In this document: positions 11,066-27,131 of the stretch, piece after piece
Numbering within the stretch: the stretch's first letter is position 1
Layout of the letters: each line of letters opens with the position of its first letter
From: an uncultured Planctomycetia bacterium
GTDB lineage: Bacteria > Omnitrophota > Gorgyraeia > Duberdicusellales > 4484-171
Direction of reading: 5' to 3'
DNA length: 64,000 nucleotides
Assembly (NCBI GenBank): GCA_964455085.1
Contig: CAYVYJ010000005.1
Coordinates: 21,239 to 85,238 of the forward strand
Notes under the pieces: generated by a model
The model's input: the letters and a program-made list of their open reading frames with translations, nothing else
The model's database searches: none
What the model was told of the DNA's origin: nothing
Made by a program: the position numbers and the translations under genes

Positions 11066-12565
11066 TTAGAAATAAAGGTCACGGGCGCCCCGCTTAATCC
11101 GCTGATAATAACTTTTAAGCTTTGGGTAAATTTTTGGCATTGAAAACTTTATTGCCTCTAACTCATCTTTGATTACCTTCTCACCTTGCTTTTGAGTTTC
11201 CTCAGTAGCAAAATCATCCAGCCACTCTCTGAAGGTAAGTACCGCATTTAACTTACAAAGCTTTCCCTCTTCCCCGGTCTTTAAGAGTTCCATAATACAC
11301 TTGCCGGTTCTTCCGCAGCGGTAACCAGCCGTACAAAAAGAAGTAATATAGCCTAAAGAAGCTAACTCTCTTATTAGTTCGTCTAAACTGCGGGTATCAC
11401 CTAAGAAAAATTGCTGCCGCTGACCTTCCTGCTCAGCATAACAATCACTGTAAGCACCGATTCCAATCCGGGTCGAAGCATCAGTTTGAGTACAGCCTAA
11501 GGAAATAGTCTCTCTTCGTATTTGGGCACTTTCCCGGGCAGTAAGAATCATCCCGGCATGGGGTATAGCTAATCTGATAACTGTAATTAACTTTTTAAAA
11601 TCCTGATCACTAACTTTATAGCCTGACTCCTGGGTAAAGGGTGTATTAGCCGCTGGTTCAAGTCGCGGGAAAGAAATTGTATGGGGACCTACACCAAAAC
11701 GGTTCTCTAATTCCCGGGAATGCAGGAGAAGGCTTAAGACTTCGAACCGCCAATCGTAAAGACCGAAAAGAACACCAATACCGACATCATCGATTCCAGC
11801 CTCAAAGGCCCGATGCATACAATATAATCGCCACTGATAATCTGCCTTAAGCGTCCCTTGGGGATGAACTTCTTGGTAGGTCTGGGGATGATAAGTCTCC
11901 TGAAACACCTGATAAGTACCTATACCAGCCTGCTTAAGCTGCTTAAGATCTTCAGTTGATAAAGGCGCAGCATTAACATTAACCCGACGAATCTGGCCAT
12001 AGCCTTTTTTGGTCTTGGCCTTTACTCCATAAATTGTTTCAATAGTTGAAGCCATATAATCTATATCAGTCTGAGGATGTTCTCCGTAAACTACGATTAG
12101 ACGCTTATGTCCGATTTGACCAGCTAAAACCTCTGTCTCTCTTCTTACCTCATCCTGACTAAGGACTTTTCTCTGAACCTGTAAATTATCTCTTCTGAAC
12201 CCGCAGTAAAAACAATTATTTAGGCAAAGATTGCCGAGGTATAAAGGGGCAAAGGTAACAATTCGATTATCGTAGACCTTTTTTTTAACTTCTCCGGCAA
12301 CTTCGGCCATCTGGTCCCAAAGCTCTTTATCTTCAACTCTCAGCAAGGTTGCTGTCTGCTCCAAGGTCAGAGTCTGGATAGCTAAGGACTTAGCTAAGAT
12401 ATCCTTAACCTCTCCCTCTGAGACCTTTGATTTAGAGACTAAAGCCCGATTAATTGATTCCTGATCGATAAAGTGTCGACCCTGATTCAGGTATTTCTCT
12501 ATCTGAGCTGGTTTTATCTGCCTTTCGGCCCAGGAATCTAAACTAGTGGTCTTAATCTGCATCAA
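11066..12565 (-). CDS. hydG: [FeFe]-hydrogenase-type radical-SAM maturase HydG (tyrosine lyase family)
   Basis: 499 aa, longer than ThiH. The radical-SAM motif is CLNNCFYCGF. The C-terminal auxiliary-cluster region SFCTAGYRCGRTGKCIMELLKTGEEGKLCKLNAVLTFREWLDDFA resembles the HydG signature (CTAxYRxGRTG..FME...C.xNA). Confidence 0.8.
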   Translation of the reverse strand: MMQIKTTSLDSWAERQIKPAQIEKYLNQGRHFIDQESINRALVSKSKVSEGEVKDILAKSLAIQTLTLEQTATLLRVEDKELWDQMAEVAGEVKKKVYDNRIVTFAPLYLGNLCLNNCFYCGFRRDNLQVQRKVLSQDEVRRETEVLAGQIGHKRLIVVYGEHPQTDIDYMASTIETIYGVKAKTKKGYGQIRRVNVNAAPLSTEDLKQLKQAGIGTYQVFQETYHPQTYQEVHPQGTLKADYQWRLYCMHRAFEAGIDDVGIGVLFGLYDWRFEVLSLLLHSRELENRFGVGPHTISFPRLEPAANTPFTQESGYKVSDQDFKKLITVIRLAIPHAGMILTARESAQIRRETISLGCTQTDASTRIGIGAYSDCYAEQEGQRQQFFLGDTRSLDELIRELASLGYITSFCTAGYRCGRTGKCIMELLKTGEEGKLCKLNAVLTFREWLDDFATEETQKQGEKVIKDELEAIKFSMPKIYPKLKSYYQRIKRGARDLYF

Positions 12566-13221
12566 ATCACCCGATTTTTCTCCGCTCTTCGCTTAGTAAG
12601 AAAAATTAAGCTCTCCAGTTCCGAAGCCATATCCACATCCGATACCGATACAGTTTGAGGAACTTTCAGCACAATCGGTGCAAAATTTAAGATACCTTTT
12701 ATTCCTGATGAGACCAGTTCATCGGCAATCTTCTGAGCAACTTCCGGCGGTGTAGAAATTATGGCAATTTTAATATTTTCTTTTCTGATAATGCGCTGCA
12801 TCTGTTTTACATGGCTAATCTTTACCCCTTTCCTGGCTCTTCTAACTTTATCTTTGTCAATATCAAAGGCCAGAGTTATTTTAAGATTGAATTTGGAAAA
12901 CCCCTCAAAGCCTAAAAGAGCGCTTCCTAATCTTCCTATGCCTACTATAGCAATTCTCCGTTCTTGATCTAGGCCTAAGATAGTTTCAATCTCCTGGGCT
13001 AACCTTTCGACATTATAACCGACACCCCGCTTACCAAAACCACCAAAGAAAGAAAGATCCTTCCTGAACTGCGCCGGACTAACATTAAGAAATTTGGTCA
13101 GTTTAGCGGAAGATATAACATCAGTATTCTGAGCTTTTAACCGCTTTAAATTCCTCAGATAAATACTGAGACGCCTAATCGCCTCTAAGGAAAAATTATT
13201 TTTATTGTTTCGTTTCTTCAT
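12562..13221 (-). CDS. rex: Redox-sensing transcriptional repressor Rex
   Basis: It has an N-terminal wHTH and a C-terminal Rossmann motif IVGIGRLGSALL, and is 219 aa. Its stop overlaps the hydG start as ATGA, and its start overlaps the hydE end. Confidence 0.85.
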   Translation of the reverse strand: MKKRNNKNNFSLEAIRRLSIYLRNLKRLKAQNTDVISSAKLTKFLNVSPAQFRKDLSFFGGFGKRGVGYNVERLAQEIETILGLDQERRIAIVGIGRLGSALLGFEGFSKFNLKITLAFDIDKDKVRRARKGVKISHVKQMQRIIRKENIKIAIISTPPEVAQKIADELVSSGIKGILNFAPIVLKVPQTVSVSDVDMASELESLIFLTKRRAEKNRVI

Positions 13222-14533
13222 CGAGTAATTCCCTACTAACTCCTAAATCTGTAGGCGCCCGACCTAAAGATTTAAGCAAAGATATTGCTTCTTTAATCTG
13301 GATATTTATCAACTCCTTACTATGAGCCTTATTAGGATAAATTTCATAATGCTGGCGGTATTTAATCGGAGTAAGGTTAAGCATCAGGGAATTAGCGCCA
13401 GCTAACAACCCTTCTCTGCGGGCTGTAGGCATCACAGTCTCTAAGGCTGTAGTTATTAAAATCTTAGCTCTTTCTGGATCAATAAACCTTGCTAAAGCCA
13501 AGGTTTTTAAGACTAACTCTGGTGTAGGAGCCTTAAAGCTTCCCAAGGGGGATCTGGGATGGGGCAGGAAAGGTCCCAAGGAATACATCTCAGCTCCTAA
13601 GACTTTAGTCAAATAGATATCATTTATAATATCTTCGGCACTTTGGCCAGGTAGGCCAATAAGAGCCCCAGTCATAATCAAGTAGCCAATTTCAGCGGCT
13701 CGCCTAATATGGGCTAATCTGGTATCTAGTTTCTGTCCGGGATGAAGATCAGCATAAATTTTTGGATTAGAGGTTTCGAAACGCATAAGCATAGCTCTGG
13801 CTCCGGCCTGATAGAGAGTGTCTAGAGCCTCTAATCCTACTTCACCAAAACTGATACAGATTAACACCGCAACTCTTTCTTTAATTCTTCTGATAATTGA
13901 AGCTAATTCTTCAGCAGCCAAATAAGGATCCTCACCGCTCTGTAAGACCAAAGCCTGAAATCCATACTTCTCGACTGCCTCAGTAGCAGTATCAATTATT
14001 TCCTCAGGTCCCATCCGGTAACGCAGAAGTCCTTTATTATCGGCTGATATACCACAATAAGCGCATTGACGCTGGCAATGGTTAGAAATCTCGATTATCC
14101 CGTGAATACAGCAGGAATTTTTATGGTACTTCTGACGCAGGAAATTAGCTGATTTATAAATCAGCTTAAGCGATTGTTGATTATCTAAATTAATTAAGTA
14201 TAATAACTCCTCTTTTTTTAAAGAACGGTTTTCTAAAGCCTTGTCCAGGATAAGCCGTAGTTTCTTATCATCAACTCCTTTATCAAGATCCAGGCGCGAT
14301 AGCCGCAGATCAACATCCTGAAGTTGAAAGAAAAGTTCTTGCCAGGCTTCCAAGATTTCCTTTGCTTCATCTTCCTTAACCTTTTTTATCACAAATCCCC
14401 CCTGGGCACAGATATAATCCCCGCGATTAATATTATAAAACTCATTAATCGCTTTTTTTTCTTGGCCAAAGTAGTCAACAATGACTTGTTTACCTTTAAT
14501 ATCCTTTACCCTTCCGGGAATCGCATAACACAT
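13202..14533 (-). CDS. hydE: Fusion protein: N-terminal HypC/HupF-like domain of about 80 aa plus the radical-SAM maturase HydE
   Basis: The N-terminus MCYAIPGRVKDIKGKQVIVDYFG...GDYICAQGGFVIKKVKEDEAKEIL carries the HypC signature (MCxAIP, essential Cys2, VDFGG, GDYVLVHVGFA). Residues 140-443 align closely with HydE, through IIEISNHCQRQCAYCGISADNKGLLRYRM, VLQSGEDPY, RFETSNP and GLPGQ...GPFLPHP. Confidence 0.8.
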   Translation of the reverse strand: MCYAIPGRVKDIKGKQVIVDYFGQEKKAINEFYNINRGDYICAQGGFVIKKVKEDEAKEILEAWQELFFQLQDVDLRLSRLDLDKGVDDKKLRLILDKALENRSLKKEELLYLINLDNQQSLKLIYKSANFLRQKYHKNSCCIHGIIEISNHCQRQCAYCGISADNKGLLRYRMGPEEIIDTATEAVEKYGFQALVLQSGEDPYLAAEELASIIRRIKERVAVLICISFGEVGLEALDTLYQAGARAMLMRFETSNPKIYADLHPGQKLDTRLAHIRRAAEIGYLIMTGALIGLPGQSAEDIINDIYLTKVLGAEMYSLGPFLPHPRSPLGSFKAPTPELVLKTLALARFIDPERAKILITTALETVMPTARREGLLAGANSLMLNLTPIKYRQHYEIYPNKAHSKELINIQIKEAISLLKSLGRAPTDLGVSRELLDEETKQ

Positions 14534-14545
14534 CTTAGTTCTCCT

Positions 14546-14788
14546 CTATTCACAGTCAAATGCGACAACTTCAATTCTTAAACTAGGGAAGAAAATAATC
14601 TCCAGCTTTGCGTCTTTAAGAATAGTATTCTTAGCCAGTATGGCAAAGGTCTGGCGAAATGAATCTTCCTTAACGCCGGTAAGCTCTCCAATCTTAAGCT
14701 GAACCCGGGTTACGGTTTTTGCTCCTTCTTCTTCAGCATGTTTAGCTATCCCCTTGATGATCGGCACAATCAGATGAGTCTCATGCAT
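14546..14788 (-). CDS. hypA: HypA-like hydrogenase nickel-insertion protein, truncated to the N-terminal Ni-binding domain with no zinc finger
   Basis: It has the MHE N-terminus and a KIGELTGVKEDS core. The ORF ends ...AFDCE with a TAG stop exactly where the first CxxC of the HypA zinc site would begin. The hypC::hydE RBS and start follow 12 nt later. Confidence 0.65.
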   Translation of the reverse strand: MHETHLIVPIIKGIAKHAEEEGAKTVTRVQLKIGELTGVKEDSFRQTFAILAKNTILKDAKLEIIFFPSLRIEVVAFDCE

Positions 14789-15287
14789 TGGATGACTCCC
14801 TAATCAATCTTGCCACTTCCCCTAGGGTCTGCTTCAGGCTAGGTGAAAACTCAGACCCTAACTCGATTGTTTTCGGCTGAACCCCAAGCATATAAATACC
14901 AGCTTCAGTCTCCTTAGTTAAACATTCCATAAACATTGCCGGAGATATGTCATGGGTAGTAAATCCGCACTTTATGATATCATCTTTTTCTAAAATCTCA
15001 TACTCCCCGGGATCTCTTCCTAAATGCACGGCATCAATAATTAAAACTGTATCGGGTTTCTCTTTAATAATCTTACCGATATAATTCTCCGGTGCCGACC
15101 CAGCATCTAAACAAACTGCTTTAGTCTTCCCCTTTATCGCCTCAATAAGAACTGGTCCAAAACCATCGTCGCCGCGGATAATATTACCGATGCCGACAAT
15201 AACAACCTTTCCTTTGAGTATACTTTTCAATTTGTCTTTCATTGTGATTAAGTATTCAGAGTAGTTTCCCGACGGCATCTGGCGCAA
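14781..15287 (-). CDS. hycI: Hydrogenase maturation endopeptidase (HycI/HybD family)
   Basis: The motif VVIVGIGNIIRGDDGFGPVLIEAI is present and the length is 168 aa. Confidence 0.8.
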   Translation of the reverse strand: MRQMPSGNYSEYLITMKDKLKSILKGKVVIVGIGNIIRGDDGFGPVLIEAIKGKTKAVCLDAGSAPENYIGKIIKEKPDTVLIIDAVHLGRDPGEYEILEKDDIIKCGFTTHDISPAMFMECLTKETEAGIYMLGVQPKTIELGSEFSPSLKQTLGEVARLIRESSNA

Positions 15288-20034: not shown

Positions 20035-21690
20035 TTAGCCCCGTAAAATGTAAAAAATCATTATCATAGCTAAAAGACACCAAGCCAAATATGTAGGAAG
20101 TACGCCATTGTGAACGTAACGTAATATCCTGATAAAAACAAAAGTTACCCTTCTGCTTAAATCGTAAAGATCGAAAACTTTTTTCTCAGCTAATTTATAA
20201 ATGGCCTTTAAAATCCCTATTTCCTGGATTGTATTGTAAAACTCAGTTCCTGAAACCCGCATATCTAGGTGTCTTCTTAAATCCTCACCGCCTACAAAGC
20301 CTGCTGTTTCCCTTATTTTGGCAGCTTTGCCTAAAAGATAGATTACCATCCCAATTGCAATTCCCACAATTATTAATAACGTGGCTAAGCTTACGTTCCA
20401 GATACCAAGAAATTCTACCCCGCCCCCTAAACTGGGGAAAATAAACATCTTAAGCGGAATCTGATAGGCAAAAACTCCAAAAATAACACAGAGTGAGGCT
20501 AAGAAGACTTGAGGAAACCACATATTTGGTCCAACATCCTTTAGGACTTTACCAGCGATCCCTGACTCTGAAGACGGCTGGCCTAAAAATACAGCATGGA
20601 TTAATTTCATAAAACTAGCTAAAGTAAGGGCGCTACCAAACATAGCCGCGGTTAGCCAAATTACCCATAGGTATCCTCCGCTCTTGGCGGTTTCAATTAT
20701 GCCCTGATAAATCATCCACTTAGAAGCAAATCCATTAAAAGGTGGTACTCCTGATATAGCTAAGGACGCTAACAAGAAGGCTCCAAAAGTAATCGGCATA
20801 ACTTTAGCCAAACCACCTAATTTTTCTAAATCACTTGTTCCAGCTTTCTTTTCTACCGCCCCACCGCCCAAAAAGAGACAAGATTTATAAATAGTATTAT
20901 TGAGCATATGAAACAGGCCCCCAGCAATACCCAAGAGACTGCCGGTACCAATACCCAAAACCATATACCCCACCTGACTTACGGCATGATAACCTAAGAG
21001 TCGTTTTAGGTCATGTTGAATTAAGGCCATCATAACTGCCGCCACAATAGTAATACTACCTACCAGCATTAAAAAAGTATTCATACCTTTATCCATCTGA
21101 AAAATATTTAAAGACAATCTGACTAAGAAGTAAATACCCAGAAGCTTATCTAGAGAAGCTGGCAGAAAGGCAGCCACCGGAGTCGGCGCATCTTCGGCGG
21201 TATCAGGCACCCAGGTATGAAAAGGCATAGCGCCAGCTTTAGCAAAAGCACCGGCAGCCAGACAAAGATAAGCCCAGACAGCTATCTTACTATCTAAAGC
21301 AATGTTTAACGTATCCATCTGCGCTACTCCTGATAGCTTCCAAACCAAGGCTAAACCCAAAAGCATAAAAGCGTCAGTGCCACCGATTATTATAAAAGCC
21401 TTTTTTGCCGTAGCCGGAGTCTTATCGCTCTTACCAAAACTGATTAAAAGGTATAAGAGTAAACCTAAGAAACCCCAGAAGACCATAAACAAAATAAGAT
21501 TGTTAGAAAAGACAGCACCTAAGGAAACAATAAAGGTAAGCACTATATATAGGTAATAACGAAACAGTCCTTTGCTTCCACGCATAAAGCCTAATGAGTA
21601 GCTAACCGTAAGGATAGTGAATATCCCGATAAATATACCTACAAAACCGGAAAGTTTATCGATCTTAAATAACTCGCCTGCTAAGTTCAT
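20035..21690 (-). CDS. MrpA/D / NuoL-like antiporter subunit (MbhH-like)
   Basis: 551 aa and polytopic. The NuoL/MrpD-family core (HTWVPDTAEDAPTPV) is present. Confidence 0.8.
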   Translation of the reverse strand: MNLAGELFKIDKLSGFVGIFIGIFTILTVSYSLGFMRGSKGLFRYYLYIVLTFIVSLGAVFSNNLILFMVFWGFLGLLLYLLISFGKSDKTPATAKKAFIIIGGTDAFMLLGLALVWKLSGVAQMDTLNIALDSKIAVWAYLCLAAGAFAKAGAMPFHTWVPDTAEDAPTPVAAFLPASLDKLLGIYFLVRLSLNIFQMDKGMNTFLMLVGSITIVAAVMMALIQHDLKRLLGYHAVSQVGYMVLGIGTGSLLGIAGGLFHMLNNTIYKSCLFLGGGAVEKKAGTSDLEKLGGLAKVMPITFGAFLLASLAISGVPPFNGFASKWMIYQGIIETAKSGGYLWVIWLTAAMFGSALTLASFMKLIHAVFLGQPSSESGIAGKVLKDVGPNMWFPQVFLASLCVIFGVFAYQIPLKMFIFPSLGGGVEFLGIWNVSLATLLIIVGIAIGMVIYLLGKAAKIRETAGFVGGEDLRRHLDMRVSGTEFYNTIQEIGILKAIYKLAEKKVFDLYDLSRRVTFVFIRILRYVHNGVLPTYLAWCLLAMIMIFYILRG

Positions 21691-22871
21691 TTAATACCCA
21701 ATTTACTTTTTATCTTTGCGGTCTTCTCCTGAGAGAGCCGGATTAAGTCTTCTCCGCCATAGAGCTTCTTACCCCTGGTATCACGCACAGCCATCCTTTC
21801 GGTACAACAATAGCAAGGATCAATAGCGGCAAAAATTATCGTAGCATCAGCTATAGTCTGGCCAACAACAGTTGATTTATAAGTTGGTAGATTCATAAAG
21901 GTTGGTGCCCGTATCTTATGGCGAGCCGGCCGGTTAGTGCCGTCACTGACCAGATAATGAAAACACTCTCCTCGGGGAGCCTCAATCTGGCCGATTCCTT
22001 CTCCGGGAGGAATACTTTTAATATTCGCGTCAATATCACCTCCAGGCAGATTTAGGAGACAGTGTTTTATTATCTTTACTGACTCAAAAGTCTCTAAAAT
22101 CCTTACTACAGCTTTATCAAAAACATCACCGTTTGAGGTCACGATCATCTTCCAATCAACTTGATCATAAGCTCCGTAAGGGCAATCTTTTCTTAAGTCT
22201 TTGGCTACTCCTGAGGCCCGGGAAGTTGGCCCGAGAGCTGAATAATCTATGGCTTCTTCTTTAGTGAGAACACCGACCCTCTTGGTTCGGGCATGCAGGA
22301 CCGGATCGTCAATAACTGCCTTTTTAAGCATTGTCAATGTCGGTATAATTGAATCGATTTTCTTAATAACCCCGGGGATATCACTGGATTTTATATCTCT
22401 TCTTACCCCTCCTGGTTTAAACATAGCGTAATTATTTCTATTACCCGCTAAAACCTCCATTGCATCCAAGATCTCTTCTCTTAACTTCCAGGCCCACATA
22501 TAAACAGTATTGTAGCCTAAGAAGTGACCGGCTAAACCCAACCACAAAAGATGTGAGTGTATTCTCTCGCCCTCAGCAATTATGGTCCGAATATACTTAG
22601 CCCGCGGTGGTACTTCTATCGGTATCACATCCTCAACGGCCCGGGTATAAGCAAAAGGGTGACTGGTAGAGCAAATACCGCAGATTCTTTCGACAACAAA
22701 AGTAGATTGGTCAAAGGTCTTCATCTCAGAGAGTTTTTCAATACCCCGGTGATTATAACCAACCTCGACATCAACCCCTACGATTTTCTCACCTTCTACA
22801 GTAAGAGTGAAAAACTCCGGTTCTTCCTGCAGGGGATGATAAGGCCCTATCGGTACTATTGTTCTAGCCAT
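21687..22871 (-). CDS. [NiFe] hydrogenase large subunit, group 4 (NuoD-like; MbhL/EchE/HycE-type)
   Basis: Both metal-binding motifs are present: N-terminal RICGICSTSH (RxCGxCxxxH) and C-terminal DPCYCCTER (DPCxxCxxR, the group-4 variant). The length is 394 aa. Confidence 0.85.
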   Translation of the reverse strand: MARTIVPIGPYHPLQEEPEFFTLTVEGEKIVGVDVEVGYNHRGIEKLSEMKTFDQSTFVVERICGICSTSHPFAYTRAVEDVIPIEVPPRAKYIRTIIAEGERIHSHLLWLGLAGHFLGYNTVYMWAWKLREEILDAMEVLAGNRNNYAMFKPGGVRRDIKSSDIPGVIKKIDSIIPTLTMLKKAVIDDPVLHARTKRVGVLTKEEAIDYSALGPTSRASGVAKDLRKDCPYGAYDQVDWKMIVTSNGDVFDKAVVRILETFESVKIIKHCLLNLPGGDIDANIKSIPPGEGIGQIEAPRGECFHYLVSDGTNRPARHKIRAPTFMNLPTYKSTVVGQTIADATIIFAAIDPCYCCTERMAVRDTRGKKLYGGEDLIRLSQEKTAKIKSKLGIK

Positions 22872-23785: not shown

Positions 23786-24709
23786 TTACTTTCCGTTTAA
23801 GGCTAAAATCACCGCTAACCCAGCAATTATAGTCATTGGACCCCAAAAGAACCGCATTGCTTGACCAATTTTTACCCGCGGGTTAGTATTTCTAATAACT
23901 GTTATCAGTGCTACTAATCCCAGGTACTTTAAGGCTCCCAGAATTAAACCTATCCCAGTGAATTTTAAACCGCCCATAAGAAGAATCATTATGAAAAAAG
24001 GTAAGACAAATAAAAGCATATTTTTAGTAAGTCGATAGAGGGCTAAGGCGGTACCGGAATACTCGATTAAAGGTCCGCCGATTATCTCGGTCTCAGCCTC
24101 TGGGATATCAAAAGGGACTAAAGCTAACTTTGCCTGCATACAAATTATAAGAACAATAAACGCCAATACCCCGGATAGATTCCCCAAGATTACTCCCTGT
24201 TGAGCTTGAAAAGTTATAATCTGGCCTAAACTTAAAGAATAATTGGATTTTATAACCGGGACTAATATTGCTAAAACAAAGGGAAGCTCATAGCTTAAGA
24301 TCAGCTTCATCTCCCGCGATGCCCCGATACTTGCTAAGGGATTACGCGAAGCAAAACCACCCAGAATAATGCTCATCGAAGGGATGGTTAATAAATACAA
24401 TACTACAATCAAATCTCCCAAAAAGCTCTTATCCGGCCAAATATTGTTTAACCAAAGAAGAGTCGATACTAAAATTACACTGGCAAAACCAATAACTGGA
24501 GCAATTAAAAAAGTTAACTTTGACGAACCAACCGGTACCAGAGTCTCCTTACCAAGAAGTTTTACGATATCGATCAATGGCTGCAACAGAGGCGGACCAA
24601 CTCGATATTGAATCCGGGCAGTGACCTTCCGGTCGACCCAACTAGCTAAAAGCCCGATAATGACCGTTGATGCAAACCCCAGCACTATAAAATAAAATAA
24701 GTAGATCAT
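23786..24709 (-). CDS. NuoH/HycD/MbhM-like membrane subunit
   Basis: 307 aa. The N-terminal NuoH-family motif is RKVTARIQYRVGPP. Confidence 0.8.
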   Translation of the reverse strand: MIYLFYFIVLGFASTVIIGLLASWVDRKVTARIQYRVGPPLLQPLIDIVKLLGKETLVPVGSSKLTFLIAPVIGFASVILVSTLLWLNNIWPDKSFLGDLIVVLYLLTIPSMSIILGGFASRNPLASIGASREMKLILSYELPFVLAILVPVIKSNYSLSLGQIITFQAQQGVILGNLSGVLAFIVLIICMQAKLALVPFDIPEAETEIIGGPLIEYSGTALALYRLTKNMLLFVLPFFIMILLMGGLKFTGIGLILGALKYLGLVALITVIRNTNPRVKIGQAMRFFWGPMTIIAGLAVILALNGK

Positions 24710-25272
24710 GCTTTTTCTCTATCCCAGTGGGTTGAATGGACAATTAGATTCTCTCCCACTAAGAAGGTATTTGAATCAAGCTCAACGTCGCCTGGTTTTA
24801 AACTTAAGGCACCGTAGCTGCAAGTCTTTATACATAAAGGTTCCTGGTCAAGATCCCTGCGATCTAAACAAAAGTCACAATTATGGATTAAGTAAGGGAC
24901 GTTTTCAGGATATATCGATCCATAAGGACAGGCATGAGAACAGGATTTACAACTTACACAACGCATATTATGCCGGATGAGAAGCTTATCTTTATCTTGC
25001 TGTTGTTCTAAGGCTTCAAAGGGACAGGCTCCGACACAATGCGGTTCTTCGCAGCGGCGGCAGACTAAAGCATAGGTGGCTAGCTCAGCTACCGAGATAA
25101 TACCGTTGTTGCCGGGATCTTGAGGATGATAAAAATAACTGCACTCAATCAAACAATCCTTACATTGGCCAGAAGCGCAGACGTCCAGATCAATAAATAG
25201 CCGCCTGTCTCTTCCTCTCCCAGCTTTTAAATTTAATTTACCTTGGTGTAGTTGTTCAGCGCTTGAGCTCAT
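24706..25272 (-). CDS. HycB/HydN-like polyferredoxin (multiple 4Fe-4S motifs)
   Basis: 16 cysteines arranged as CxxCxxCxxxCP-type repeats (CRRCEEPHCVGACP, CVSCKSCSHACP, CDFC...CIKTCSYGAL). Confidence 0.7.
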   Translation of the reverse strand: MSSSAEQLHQGKLNLKAGRGRDRRLFIDLDVCASGQCKDCLIECSYFYHPQDPGNNGIISVAELATYALVCRRCEEPHCVGACPFEALEQQQDKDKLLIRHNMRCVSCKSCSHACPYGSIYPENVPYLIHNCDFCLDRRDLDQEPLCIKTCSYGALSLKPGDVELDSNTFLVGENLIVHSTHWDREKA

Positions 25273-25273
25273 T

Positions 25274-26098
25274 TTAGTCCCAAATTTCGTGAAAATCTTT
25301 TATCTTATCGTAAGTAAAGACCGGACCGTCTTTGCAAGCATAGTAAGTCCCAATCCGGCAATGCCCGCACTTACCAATACCACAAGACATGTTCTTCTCC
25401 ATTGAAAGGTAAATATTCTCATCCTTAAACCCTGATTCCAAGAGCTTAAAAGTAACGAATTTCATCATTATCGGCGGTCCGCAAACCACAGCAACTCCTC
25501 TTTCACAGTCCATGGCTAAACCATCCAGAATTGTGGTTACCAGTCCCACATGGCCCTTCCACTTCTCATCACCCTTATCTACGGTAAGCCTTAAATCTAA
25601 ATCGTCTCGCTTTGCCCAATCGCTGACTTCACGCTTATAAACCAACTCCTGAGGGTTTCGACAACCACCTCGAAACAATAGTTTTTTAATTTCCCCTCTT
25701 ATTGTAAAAAGAGTATAGATAAGACTGCGTAAAGGAGCAAAACCAACCCCACCACCAATAACCAAAACTTCCCGGTCTTTAAACTTATCCAGTGGGTAAC
25801 CCAGACCTAAGGGACCTCTTACTCCGATAGAGGTGCCTTTCTTAAGTTCATGAATCTTATCGGTAACCTTACCAACCTTCATTACAGTTATTTCCATCGT
25901 ATCCTTTACTGATGGCTTTGAAGAGGGAGTAAAAGGGGCTTCTCCTACGCCAGGGATAGTCACTTCGATGAATTGACCAGTAGAAAAGCTTAGCGCTTCT
26001 TTAGGTTTAAATTTTATAGTCTTTATGGTCGGTGTCTCATCAATAACCTCAAGAACCTTAGCTTCGATCGAACGATAAGGATTTTTACATTTAGACAT
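25274..26098 (-). CDS. AsrB/PyrK/sulfhydrogenase-gamma-like FAD/NAD(P)-binding oxidoreductase with a C-terminal 2Fe-2S
   Basis: It has an FNR-like fold with the motif VIGGGVGFAPL and a terminal CGIGKCGHCRIG...CKDGPVF. Confidence 0.75.
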   Translation of the reverse strand: MSKCKNPYRSIEAKVLEVIDETPTIKTIKFKPKEALSFSTGQFIEVTIPGVGEAPFTPSSKPSVKDTMEITVMKVGKVTDKIHELKKGTSIGVRGPLGLGYPLDKFKDREVLVIGGGVGFAPLRSLIYTLFTIRGEIKKLLFRGGCRNPQELVYKREVSDWAKRDDLDLRLTVDKGDEKWKGHVGLVTTILDGLAMDCERGVAVVCGPPIMMKFVTFKLLESGFKDENIYLSMEKNMSCGIGKCGHCRIGTYYACKDGPVFTYDKIKDFHEIWD

Positions 26099-27131
26099 CG
26101 GATACCAATTTATTTAATACTTTTCTAATATCGATCTTTGCCGGACAAGCCGAAATACAGCGGCCGCAACCAGTACAAGCATAAATGCCGGCAACTTTGG
26201 GAAAAAAATCAAATTTTTTCTCAAATCTGTTCCGCAACCGCATCCAGAGCTTCTCCCGGGGATTAGCTCCTCCGGCAACCCGGGCAAAATCTTTTATCAT
26301 ACATGAATCCCAGATTCGCAGCCGAGCCATACGCTGTTGATCTTTTTGGTCATAAAGAAGAAAACAGTGACAAGTAGGACATATGGTATTACAAGCTCCA
26401 CACTCAAGGCAAGTTTTAGCCTCATCAGCCCAGATACTAGAATCATATTTCTTTTCAATAATGCCCTCAAAAGCCTCTTGGTTGGATAAACTATTATCTT
26501 TAATATTTTTATCGACCATATTTTTAATTGCAAGCCGCTGTTGGTCTCTCTGGGCAATAAGCTGGCTACTACCAGCTTCAAAGAATGAAGAATTTTTAGC
26601 TATGAGCTCACGGCCCTTTTCGGAACCAGATTCGATAATAAAACCACCTTTGACTTCTGAAAGATTAAGGTCAAAATCACCTTGAGGATAAGGCATCAAA
26701 CCTAAAGCCAGACAAAAACAAGTATCAATTACACAAGTGCAATCTGCGGCAATAATAAGGTTCCTCTTCCGGGCGGTAAAGTAGAAAGGATCTTGACACT
26801 CCTGCTCATCTCCTGAAGAAGCGGAAAATACGTAATCTTGAACCTTAAAGCCTTTTAAATCGCAAGCCTTAGCTCCGACAATCGCTAACGGCTTGCCCTT
26901 AGTTTGAGGAAGCTGGTCCTTAAAATCTTCAGCTACTACTTCTCGAGCCCGGTAAAAGAATGATTTTAAAGGCTCATAAGCCCTTACTTCTCCGATAGTG
27001 ATATCCGCATCAGAACCCTCATATTTTTTATAGAAACGCTGCTGACCCTTTTTTATCGGCAGATAGACAGAATAGTCTTGGCTTAAATTATCTAAAAACT
27101 TAGCAAAATTACCTAAGGAGATATAATTCAT
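26091..27131 (-). CDS. AsrA/sulfhydrogenase-beta-like FeS subunit
   Basis: CLECGACNTICPTCHC and CTGCGRCISACP are present. The length is 346 aa and the cysteine spacing matches AsrA. Confidence 0.7.
   Translation of the reverse strand: MNYISLGNFAKFLDNLSQDYSVYLPIKKGQQRFYKKYEGSDADITIGEVRAYEPLKSFFYRAREVVAEDFKDQLPQTKGKPLAIVGAKACDLKGFKVQDYVFSASSGDEQECQDPFYFTARKRNLIIAADCTCVIDTCFCLALGLMPYPQGDFDLNLSEVKGGFIIESGSEKGRELIAKNSSFFEAGSSQLIAQRDQQRLAIKNMVDKNIKDNSLSNQEAFEGIIEKKYDSSIWADEAKTCLECGACNTICPTCHCFLLYDQKDQQRMARLRIWDSCMIKDFARVAGGANPREKLWMRLRNRFEKKFDFFPKVAGIYACTGCGRCISACPAKIDIRKVLNKLVSDV

Follow-up and report, generated by a model that had tools for sequence, protein, structure and literature searches.

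The window, by which we mean the whole 64-kb stretch of DNA analysed here, carries a hydrogenase operon that extends from about 27.1 kb down to 11.1 kb, all of its genes being on the minus strand (Table 1). The operon opens with AsrA-like and AsrB-like iron-sulfur/flavin subunits and a ferredoxin-like subunit, followed by NuoH-, NuoB- and NuoC-like subunits. Next come the large subunit of a [NiFe] hydrogenase, a NuoL/MrpD-like protein, further Mrp-antiporter-like subunits and a NuoI-like ferredoxin, and the operon ends with HycI, an 80-residue HypA, a HypC::HydE-like fusion, Rex and HydG. The Mrp-antiporter-like calls rest on the equivalent genes of two related loci (L002 and L005), which have MnhB, MbhD/E, MNHE, MrpF and PhaG Pfam matches. 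The rest of the window contains lipopolysaccharide, housekeeping, TCA-cycle and ribosomal genes. Neither hypB, hypD, hypE nor hypF is found in the 64-kb window, and the ORFs examined across it include no second hypA.

The large subunit contains the motifs RICGICSTSH and DPCYCCTER with all four Ni-Fe cysteines, followed by a C-terminal extension of 33 residues. These features identify it as a bona fide nickel-iron enzyme that needs both nickel insertion and HycI cleavage. The stop codon of hycI overlaps the start of the next gene by 8 nt (ATGCATGA). This next gene, which encodes a HypA homologue without a zinc finger, is referred to below as mini-HypA. Among the related loci analysed (80 of the 97 encoding loci from species-representative genomes; numbered with the prefix L), mini-HypA directly follows HycI in 77, with the same 8-nt overlap in 39 of these 77. 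Like HypA/HybF proteins, mini-HypA is encoded in a [NiFe]-hydrogenase operon next to the maturation protease, here downstream of a group-4 large subunit. From this gene arrangement, mini-HypA is predicted to be translationally coupled to HycI at the end of a group-4 (Mbh/Mrp-type) [NiFe]-hydrogenase operon.

The AsrA-like (Fer4_22), AsrB-like (FAD/NAD-binding) and ferredoxin-like genes (24706-27131, minus strand) open a membrane-bound group-4 operon in the window, and an AsrA/AsrB-like pair also precedes group-3b enzymes in L006, L007 and L009. The AsrA/AsrB-like genes hint at a pyridine-nucleotide-linked module on the Mrp-type hydrogenase.

Table 1. Features of the mini-HypA locus (positions in the window)
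Feature	Position	Strand	Basis and remarks
Group-4 [NiFe]-hydrogenase large subunit, presumably served by mini-HypA and HycI	21687..22871	-	Pfam Complex1_49kDa and NiFeSe_Hases
HycI-type hydrogenase maturation endopeptidase	14781..15287	-	Pfam HycI; TIGR00072, 108.9 bits
Mini-HypA (zinc-less HypA)	14546..14788	-	80 aa and TAG stop; ORF translation
MHETH N-terminus: Met1-His2-Glu3 nickel-binding motif and His5	14774..14788	-	MHE in 120/120 homologues
Turn P68-S-L-R71, in place of the zinc-finger module	14576..14587	-	32-column alignment gap; tight hairpin between strands 61-67 and 72-79 in the AF2 model
Last beta-strand, residues 72-79 (IEVVAFDC)	14552..14575	-	Aligns to the full-length C-terminal strand in 56/56 short HypAs
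AGGAGAA, Shine-Dalgarno-like	14539..14545	-	Directly 3' of TAG, 5 nt to the next ATG; read from the sequence
HypC::HydE-like fusion, 443 aa	13202..14533	-	Pfam HupF_HypC (1-64) and Radical_SAM
Rex redox-sensing repressor	12562..13221	-	NCBIfam Rex, 255 bits; same position in 10 related loci
HydG-family radical-SAM tyrosine lyase	11066..12565	-	TIGR03955, 454 bits (cutoff 312)

The mini-HypA protein (MHETHLIVPIIKGIAKHAEEEGAKTVTRVQLKIGELTGVKEDSFRQTFAILAKNTILKDAKLEIIFFPSLRIEVVAFDCE) begins with MHETHL and ends with VVAFDCE. Its stop codon is followed by a 12-nt spacer (AGGAGAACTAAG) and then by the ATG, at 14533, of the HupF/HypC plus radical-SAM (HydE-like) fusion. A first-pass annotation of this DNA had described the MHE start, the TAG stop and, ahead of the next gene, a 12-nt spacer containing AGGAGAA, and the sequence bears out each of them. 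The Pfam HypA model (PF01155) matches mini-HypA over positions 1-66 of its 112 positions (E = 1.9e-15; 57.3 bits, with a gathering cutoff of 28.9). The NCBIfam equivalog model TIGR00100 matches the same part of the protein and yields 58.1 bits; this is under the cutoff of 88.1 because one third of the model is absent from the protein. The MHE nickel-binding motif of HypA is present in the window protein as in every homologue, and there is no CxxC motif, the element of the structural zinc site of HypA, anywhere in mini-HypA. Several of the cysteine-poor 80-aa proteins carry the name "Zn finger protein HypA/HybF", all from one source; on these proteins the "Zn finger" label is misleading, having been inherited from the name of the family.

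A frameshift or premature stop in a metagenome-assembled genome could also produce a short ORF, and such assembly or sequencing artefacts are a generic risk of metagenome assembly, with nothing specific pointing to one here. An identical 80-aa protein with the same neighbours and gene order is, however, found on 7 independent contigs from several different sequencing runs, and the same length recurs in hundreds of independent assemblies. The chance of an artefact is therefore practically nil, and we take the window sequence as read to be real; the read support that the first-pass annotation advised checking is supplied by the same 7 contigs.

The first-pass annotation also held that the stop codon falls exactly where the first CxxC of the zinc finger would start. 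This was contradicted by a MAFFT alignment in which 59 full-length HypAs were combined with 56 short ones (the window protein among the 56): in all 56 short forms, the last strand falls on the final 12 well-occupied full-length columns, and the only large gap comprises 32 well-occupied full-length columns, with both CxxC motifs inside it. In an example pair from this alignment, the short form reads ...TGKELYIENIEIESPG and the full-length form reads ...TGNGLYIENIEVESP. The last 10 residues of mini-HypA (RIEVVAFDCE) correspond to the final beta-strand of full-length HypA. Residue 79 is variable in the window's family (I in 58, V in 44 and C in 12), and on sequence grounds the Cys of "FDCE" is no remnant of a CxxC. 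Truncation at the first CxxC is ruled out by the alignment together with the variable residue 79. Instead, the alignment indicates that the zinc module was excised internally, that a turn of four residues closed the sheet again and that the stop codon is at the natural C-terminus of HypA. When the short forms were compared locally, by HMMER, with a profile of full-length sequences only, the deletion was bridged in just 9 of the 56, the last strand being too short to reach a score by itself; the global MAFFT alignment was taken instead.

An AlphaFold (AF2) model built on the 120-sequence homologue alignment (pLDDT 95.7) has the topology H-E-H-E-E, with helices at residues 4-20 and 41-52, strands at 26-34, 61-67 and 72-79, and a tight turn between the last two strands. 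These are the two helices and three-stranded sheet of the alpha/beta nickel-domain fold. In a Foldseek search of the PDB, all matches with E < 1e-2 are HypA structures, and a probability of 1.00 is reached by HypA chains only. The reference structures of the HypA/HybF family (PF01155) are those of Thermococcus kodakarensis (3A43, 5AUN and 5YXY) and Helicobacter pylori (6G81 and 2KDX). The nickel domain of T. kodakarensis HypA superimposes on the mini-HypA model with an rmsd of 1.3-1.4 Å over about 65 residues (for 5aun_A, E = 6.5e-6 and 1.4 Å over 66 columns). The alignments to H. pylori HypA (6g81 and 2kdx) span 114-115 columns of the 117-119-residue targets (TMq 0.80-0.81), reach the target end and bridge a gap of about 35 residues. 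The zinc-finger module sat between the second and third strand of the nickel domain, and the full sheet, both helices and the Met-His-Glu site are kept. Mini-HypA shares with HypA/HybF the N-terminal MHE motif, the nickel-domain fold and an acidic [DE]-x-[DE] at the end of the C-terminal strand; it differs in that the CxxC-Xn-CxxC zinc module is wholly absent, His5 is nearly invariant, no hypB is adjacent and the score is below the TIGR00100 cutoff.

A homologue search of 5.8 billion proteins returned 120 clusters with 58-76% identity to mini-HypA. Exactly 80 aa is the length in 114 of these clusters, 85 are without any cysteine, and the clusters with names are from Omnitrophota. The first-pass annotation proposed looking for the same short form in neighbouring genomes; a scan of species-representative genomes finds mini-HypA encoded in at least 97 species-level genomes, mostly Omnitrophota. 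Pairwise codon comparison gave a median pN/pS of 0.23 over 2485 pairs and a dN/dS of 0.15 for the 45 unsaturated pairs (window and L010: pS 0.32, pN 0.04), indicating that mini-HypA is under purifying selection (dN/dS about 0.15-0.23). The His5 of MHExH (14774-14776) is nearly invariant in the mini-HypA families (alignments A1-A3), being present in 77 of the 80 related loci. Two residues of helix 1, His17 and Glu21, show no variation in alignment A1 (28 sequences) and reach at least 90% conservation in A2, the 120-sequence alignment of the Omnitrophota family.

Two alternative cassettes are found downstream of mini-HypA. In 47 of the 80 loci (type I), it is followed by a short HypF (about 355 aa), HypC, HypD and HypE; in 17 (type II, the arrangement of the window), it is followed by HypC::HydE, sometimes Rex, and then HydG. 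The other 16 were not assignable to either class, five of them having less than 5 kb of downstream sequence. Among complete Omnitrophota chromosomes, CP070797.1 and CP070684.1 carry the radical-SAM cassette, and CP070655.1, CP070837.1 and CP070780.1 carry HypFCDE. Among loci with at least 5 kb downstream, 28 have only HypFCDE, 15 have only HypC::HydE/HydG, 11 have neither and none has both (Fisher 9e-7, with kinship ignored). On an unbootstrapped neighbour-joining tree of the large subunit, type I and type II are interleaved in at least six places. Cys79 was considered as a marker of the radical-SAM cassette and rejected: it occurs in 5/17 type II and 0/47 type I loci, which is probably a clade effect.

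The distribution of these cassettes bears on one of the two readings in the first-pass annotation, namely that the gene is a local pseudogene, a full-length hypA whose 3' end was overwritten when hypC::hydE was inserted. Such an event would fit both the stop codon lying only 12 nt before the next gene and the Pfam match to model positions 1-66 only, but the next gene is HypF, the first of HypF-HypC-HypD-HypE, in the 47 type I loci, and HypC::HydE in only 17. Since type I and type II loci have the same 80-aa form, the arrival of hypC::hydE cannot have truncated HypA. The presence of the same protein in at least 97 species, the retention of the HypA C-terminal strand and the dN/dS values given above also argue against decay. 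We regard a pseudogene as extremely unlikely, and both the pseudogene and the artefact readings are rejected. The other reading of the first-pass annotation, a functional mini-HypA, gains support from the uniform length, the invariant MHE, purifying selection, the HypA-like fold and the kept position next to HycI. It is highly probable, in our judgement, that the gene is a genuine, selectively maintained HypA consisting of the nickel domain only, which would act as a nickel chaperone for the group-4 [NiFe] hydrogenase.

Zinc-less HypAs occur in other lineages too, and on sequence comparison the zinc module appears to have been lost several times independently. A profile search of 1.84 billion representatives returned 2434 relatives; the best 150 of these include 59 full-length proteins with two CxxC motifs and 55 short ones (76-92 aa) with an MHE start and no CxxC. 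For 14 of the 56 short HypAs the nearest neighbour over shared columns, in a comparison with no tree support behind it, is a full-length HypA, which suggests several independent losses of the module. His5 is found in 27/55 short and 7/59 full-length HypAs (Fisher 1.4e-5, with kinship ignored). A second family of 80-aa zinc-less HypAs (MHEMHL...SFDCE) occurs in Saganbacteria, Margulisbacteria and others (L006, L007, L009; P0271-P0386). Its members, about 35% identical to the window protein, have the same length and internal excision and likewise come after HycI; the genes next in line are HypC::HydE(-HydG) in L007 and L009 and Fur-FeoAB-HypF-C-D-E in L006. They differ from the window's family in being located behind group-3b-type soluble hydrogenases and in keeping the penultimate Cys in about 90 of 116 members, where the window's family mostly has I or V. 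Three genomes encode a longer HypA homologue (111-150 aa) besides mini-HypA (L055, 10968-11303; L065, 18186-; L073, 2178-; minus strand). The longer homologue adjoins a second, shorter (359 aa) group-4-like large subunit, and its presence alongside mini-HypA indicates that both HypA forms can coexist in one genome.

A 2019 review attributes both a nickel site and a CxxC zinc site to every HypA protein (PMC7055735), and in a 2026 paper the zinc module is said to be essential for interaction with partners (PMC13202556). Stability, contacts with partners and regulation are all held to require the module (PMC7055735, PMC13202556). A conserved and widespread zinc-less HypA contradicts the textbook statement that all HypA carry a zinc finger. 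Our literature search, of incomplete coverage, found no description of a zinc-less HypA, and database entries are named simply HypA. The existence of a large, selected and repeatedly evolved class of HypA without the zinc module suggests that the nickel domain is a self-sufficient unit. Mini-HypA thereby offers a natural minimal chaperone for separating the contributions of the zinc finger and of HypB to nickel delivery.

In HypA, the nickel ligands include the N-terminal amine of Met1 and His2 (PMC7055735). [quoted passage not shown] Most likely, mini-HypA is a minimal chaperone that inserts nickel into the group-4 [NiFe] hydrogenase, and by analogy we infer the following sequence of steps. 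Ni(II) would be bound by the N-terminal amine, His2 and Glu3 of mini-HypA, and His5 may supply an additional imidazole, the role played by His98 in the T. kodakarensis complex. Mini-HypA would then dock on the N-terminal tail of an immature large subunit that already holds Fe(CN)2CO, and would pass nickel to it directly, without the HypB cycle mediated by the zinc finger. Finally, HycI would cut off the 33-residue C-terminal extension. In H. pylori the cysteines of the HypA zinc site are required for hydrogenase activity (PMC5557546, PMC7055735), so loss of the zinc module might be expected to be deleterious, which counts against a functional mini-HypA.

[quoted passage not shown] The zinc module that canonical HypA needs for partner contacts is gone (PMC13202556), there is no hypB nearby, the gene is tightly coupled to HycI, and high nickel bypasses HypA/HypB (PMC12134894), all of which would suit such a change. 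MHE, the only known nickel-binding determinant of HypA, is nevertheless invariant in 120/120 homologues, with a nearly invariant His5, and because of the invariant MHE we rate a changed job lower than a nickel role and consider it improbable. A split HypA, whose zinc finger would come in trans from a small CxxC protein encoded separately, is very unlikely. Fission of two-domain proteins is common, but no small ORF with two CxxC motifs recurs on the operon strand in the 80 loci, and there is none in the window operon; the 8 such ORFs that were found are scattered over 6/80 loci, 5-10 kb downstream. The split-gene candidate was accordingly rejected for want of a recurrent zinc-ribbon ORF.

No HypB-like ORF was detected in the 80 loci (10 kb on each side) or in the 64-kb window. 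The HypB motif ENVGNLVC had 0 matches in the mini-HypA loci in a search run with no positive control. Neighbour clustering with Pfam annotation of the recurrent unlabelled families of the 80 loci recovered no CobW/HypB-type protein. A Walker A motif with a CHx28-36C metal site defines the GTPase HypB (PMC13202556). A scan for this combination, for which there was no HypB positive control, found no HypB in the 80 loci or the window, one antisense ORF being matched. The zinc region of canonical HypA holds residues important for contact with HypB (PMC13202556). Taken with the absence of hypB near the 80 loci, this suggests that nickel loading by mini-HypA is probably HypB-independent or involves a different partner. 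The first-pass annotation suggested that the HypB interaction was possibly lost: the lack of hypB within 10 kb in the 80 loci is compatible with such a loss and falls short of proving it. Since the N-terminus of Archaeoglobus fulgidus HypB binds HypA (PMC3287977), a HypB encoded elsewhere in the genome might nevertheless cooperate with the nickel domain.

In the vicinity of mini-HypA, the NTPase candidates are limited to pairs of MinD/Mrp-type ATPases (GKGGTGKT) in 4/80 loci (L020, L021, L030 and L042), located 5-9 kb downstream of mini-HypA; all four are HypFCDE loci. A small Gly-rich CxxC...CxxC protein lies beside the ATPase pairs in L020, L021 and L030.

In the type II cassette of the window, the N-terminal HypC domain of the HypC::HydE-like protein begins with MCYAIPG, and a conserved linker joins it to a HydE-like radical-SAM domain with CQRQCAYC. 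The HydE-like domain scores 245 bits against the TIGR03956 HydE model, just below the cutoff of 254.6. The fusion matches structures of Thermotoga maritima HydE (E = 5e-68) and of HypC (E = 2e-9), and the essential Cys2 of the fused HypC domain is kept in 17/17 cases. The complete 1.5-Mb Omnitrophota chromosome CP070797.1 (L005, 10247-13012; equal to L023) encodes a 921-aa HypC-HydE-HydG triple fusion directly after mini-HypA. With the HypC domain and linker as query, the homologue search returned 5 fragments only, and no distribution of the fusion was obtained from it. The Rex gene overlaps those of both HypC::HydE and HydG; in L009, Rex is instead found upstream of the hydrogenase genes.

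The HydG of the window aligns over its full length with Thermoanaerobacter italicus HydG (4wcx; E = 1.4e-135), and this alignment makes a difference visible in the C-terminal cluster motif. The altered motif is FCTAGYRCGRTGKC...C: at residues about 412-438, the window protein reads FCTAGYRCGRTGKCIMELLKTGEEGKLC, in contrast to YCTACYRMGRTGDRFMSFAKSGQIHNFC in T. italicus. The second Cys of CxxC is replaced by Gly and two new Cys are present, changing CxxC...C to C-x5-C-x5-C-x14-C. This variant occurs in 14/15 Omnitrophota HydG proteins of the radical-SAM cassette; the HydG proteins of L009 and L015 are canonical.

Neither HydF nor HydA was found by Pfam among the window ORFs of at least 90 aa or by neighbour-family clustering in the related loci. 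The combination of HydE, HydF and HydG acting on HydA is thus not seen within the window and related loci, where the genes follow a [NiFe] operon. The window proteins resemble HydE and HydG of [FeFe]-hydrogenase maturation in keeping both radical-SAM CX3CX2C motifs. They differ in that their genes lie in a [NiFe] operon with no HydF or HydA nearby, in the fusion of HydE to HypC and, relative to T. italicus HydG, in the auxiliary-cluster motif C-x5-C-x5-C-x14-C.

From the gene contents of the two cassettes, it looks as though the HypDEF pathway has been displaced by radical-SAM enzymes. The mutual exclusivity of the cassettes in the same slot, their interleaving on the tree, the retention of Cys2 in all 17 fusions, the 921-aa fusion and the variant HydG motif point to a radical-SAM route to Fe(CN)2CO. 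HydG would make CO and CN- from tyrosine, and the iron synthon would be processed by the HydE-like domain, which would pass it to the HypC domain fused to it, so that HydG and HypC::HydE would stand in for HypF, HypD and HypE. With more doubt than confidence, we tentatively propose that mini-HypA is the nickel-insertion part of a HypB-less maturation set, here paired with this radical-SAM route in place of HypF/HypD/HypE. Alternatively, HydE and HydG may serve an [FeFe] hydrogenase encoded elsewhere in the genome, as [FeFe] hydrogenases occur in some Omnitrophota (PMC10066038).

The anaerobic origin of the CO ligand in [NiFe] hydrogenases was called the field's most pressing open question in a 2025 review (PMC12134894). 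The proposed route, if it exists, would mean that the diatomic ligands of [NiFe] hydrogenases have two biosynthetic origins, and it would identify one anaerobic source of the CO ligand. A HypC-fused HydE and a HydG that are seemingly interchangeable with HypF-HypC-HypD-HypE are therefore a candidate answer to this question, and one that is directly testable. We consider the neighbourhood, with its radical-SAM cassette in the HypFCDE slot, a more novel and more consequential lead than the zinc-less HypA. Our literature search returned nothing relevant on a HypC-HydE fusion or on the maturation genes of Omnitrophota and Saganbacteria, and the supplements of PMC8542988 contain no hyp/hyd gene tables.

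Two further features were observed in the type I cassette. HypF is only about 350-365 aa long in most type I loci (L016-L074), versus about 775 aa in L029, L072 and L006; the short type I HypF presumably lacks the N-terminal half with the acylphosphatase and zinc-finger regions. In L044 (6999-7712) and 10 other type I loci, HypE is directly followed by a 237-aa membrane protein of the DsbD_2 family, which might be a metal transporter.
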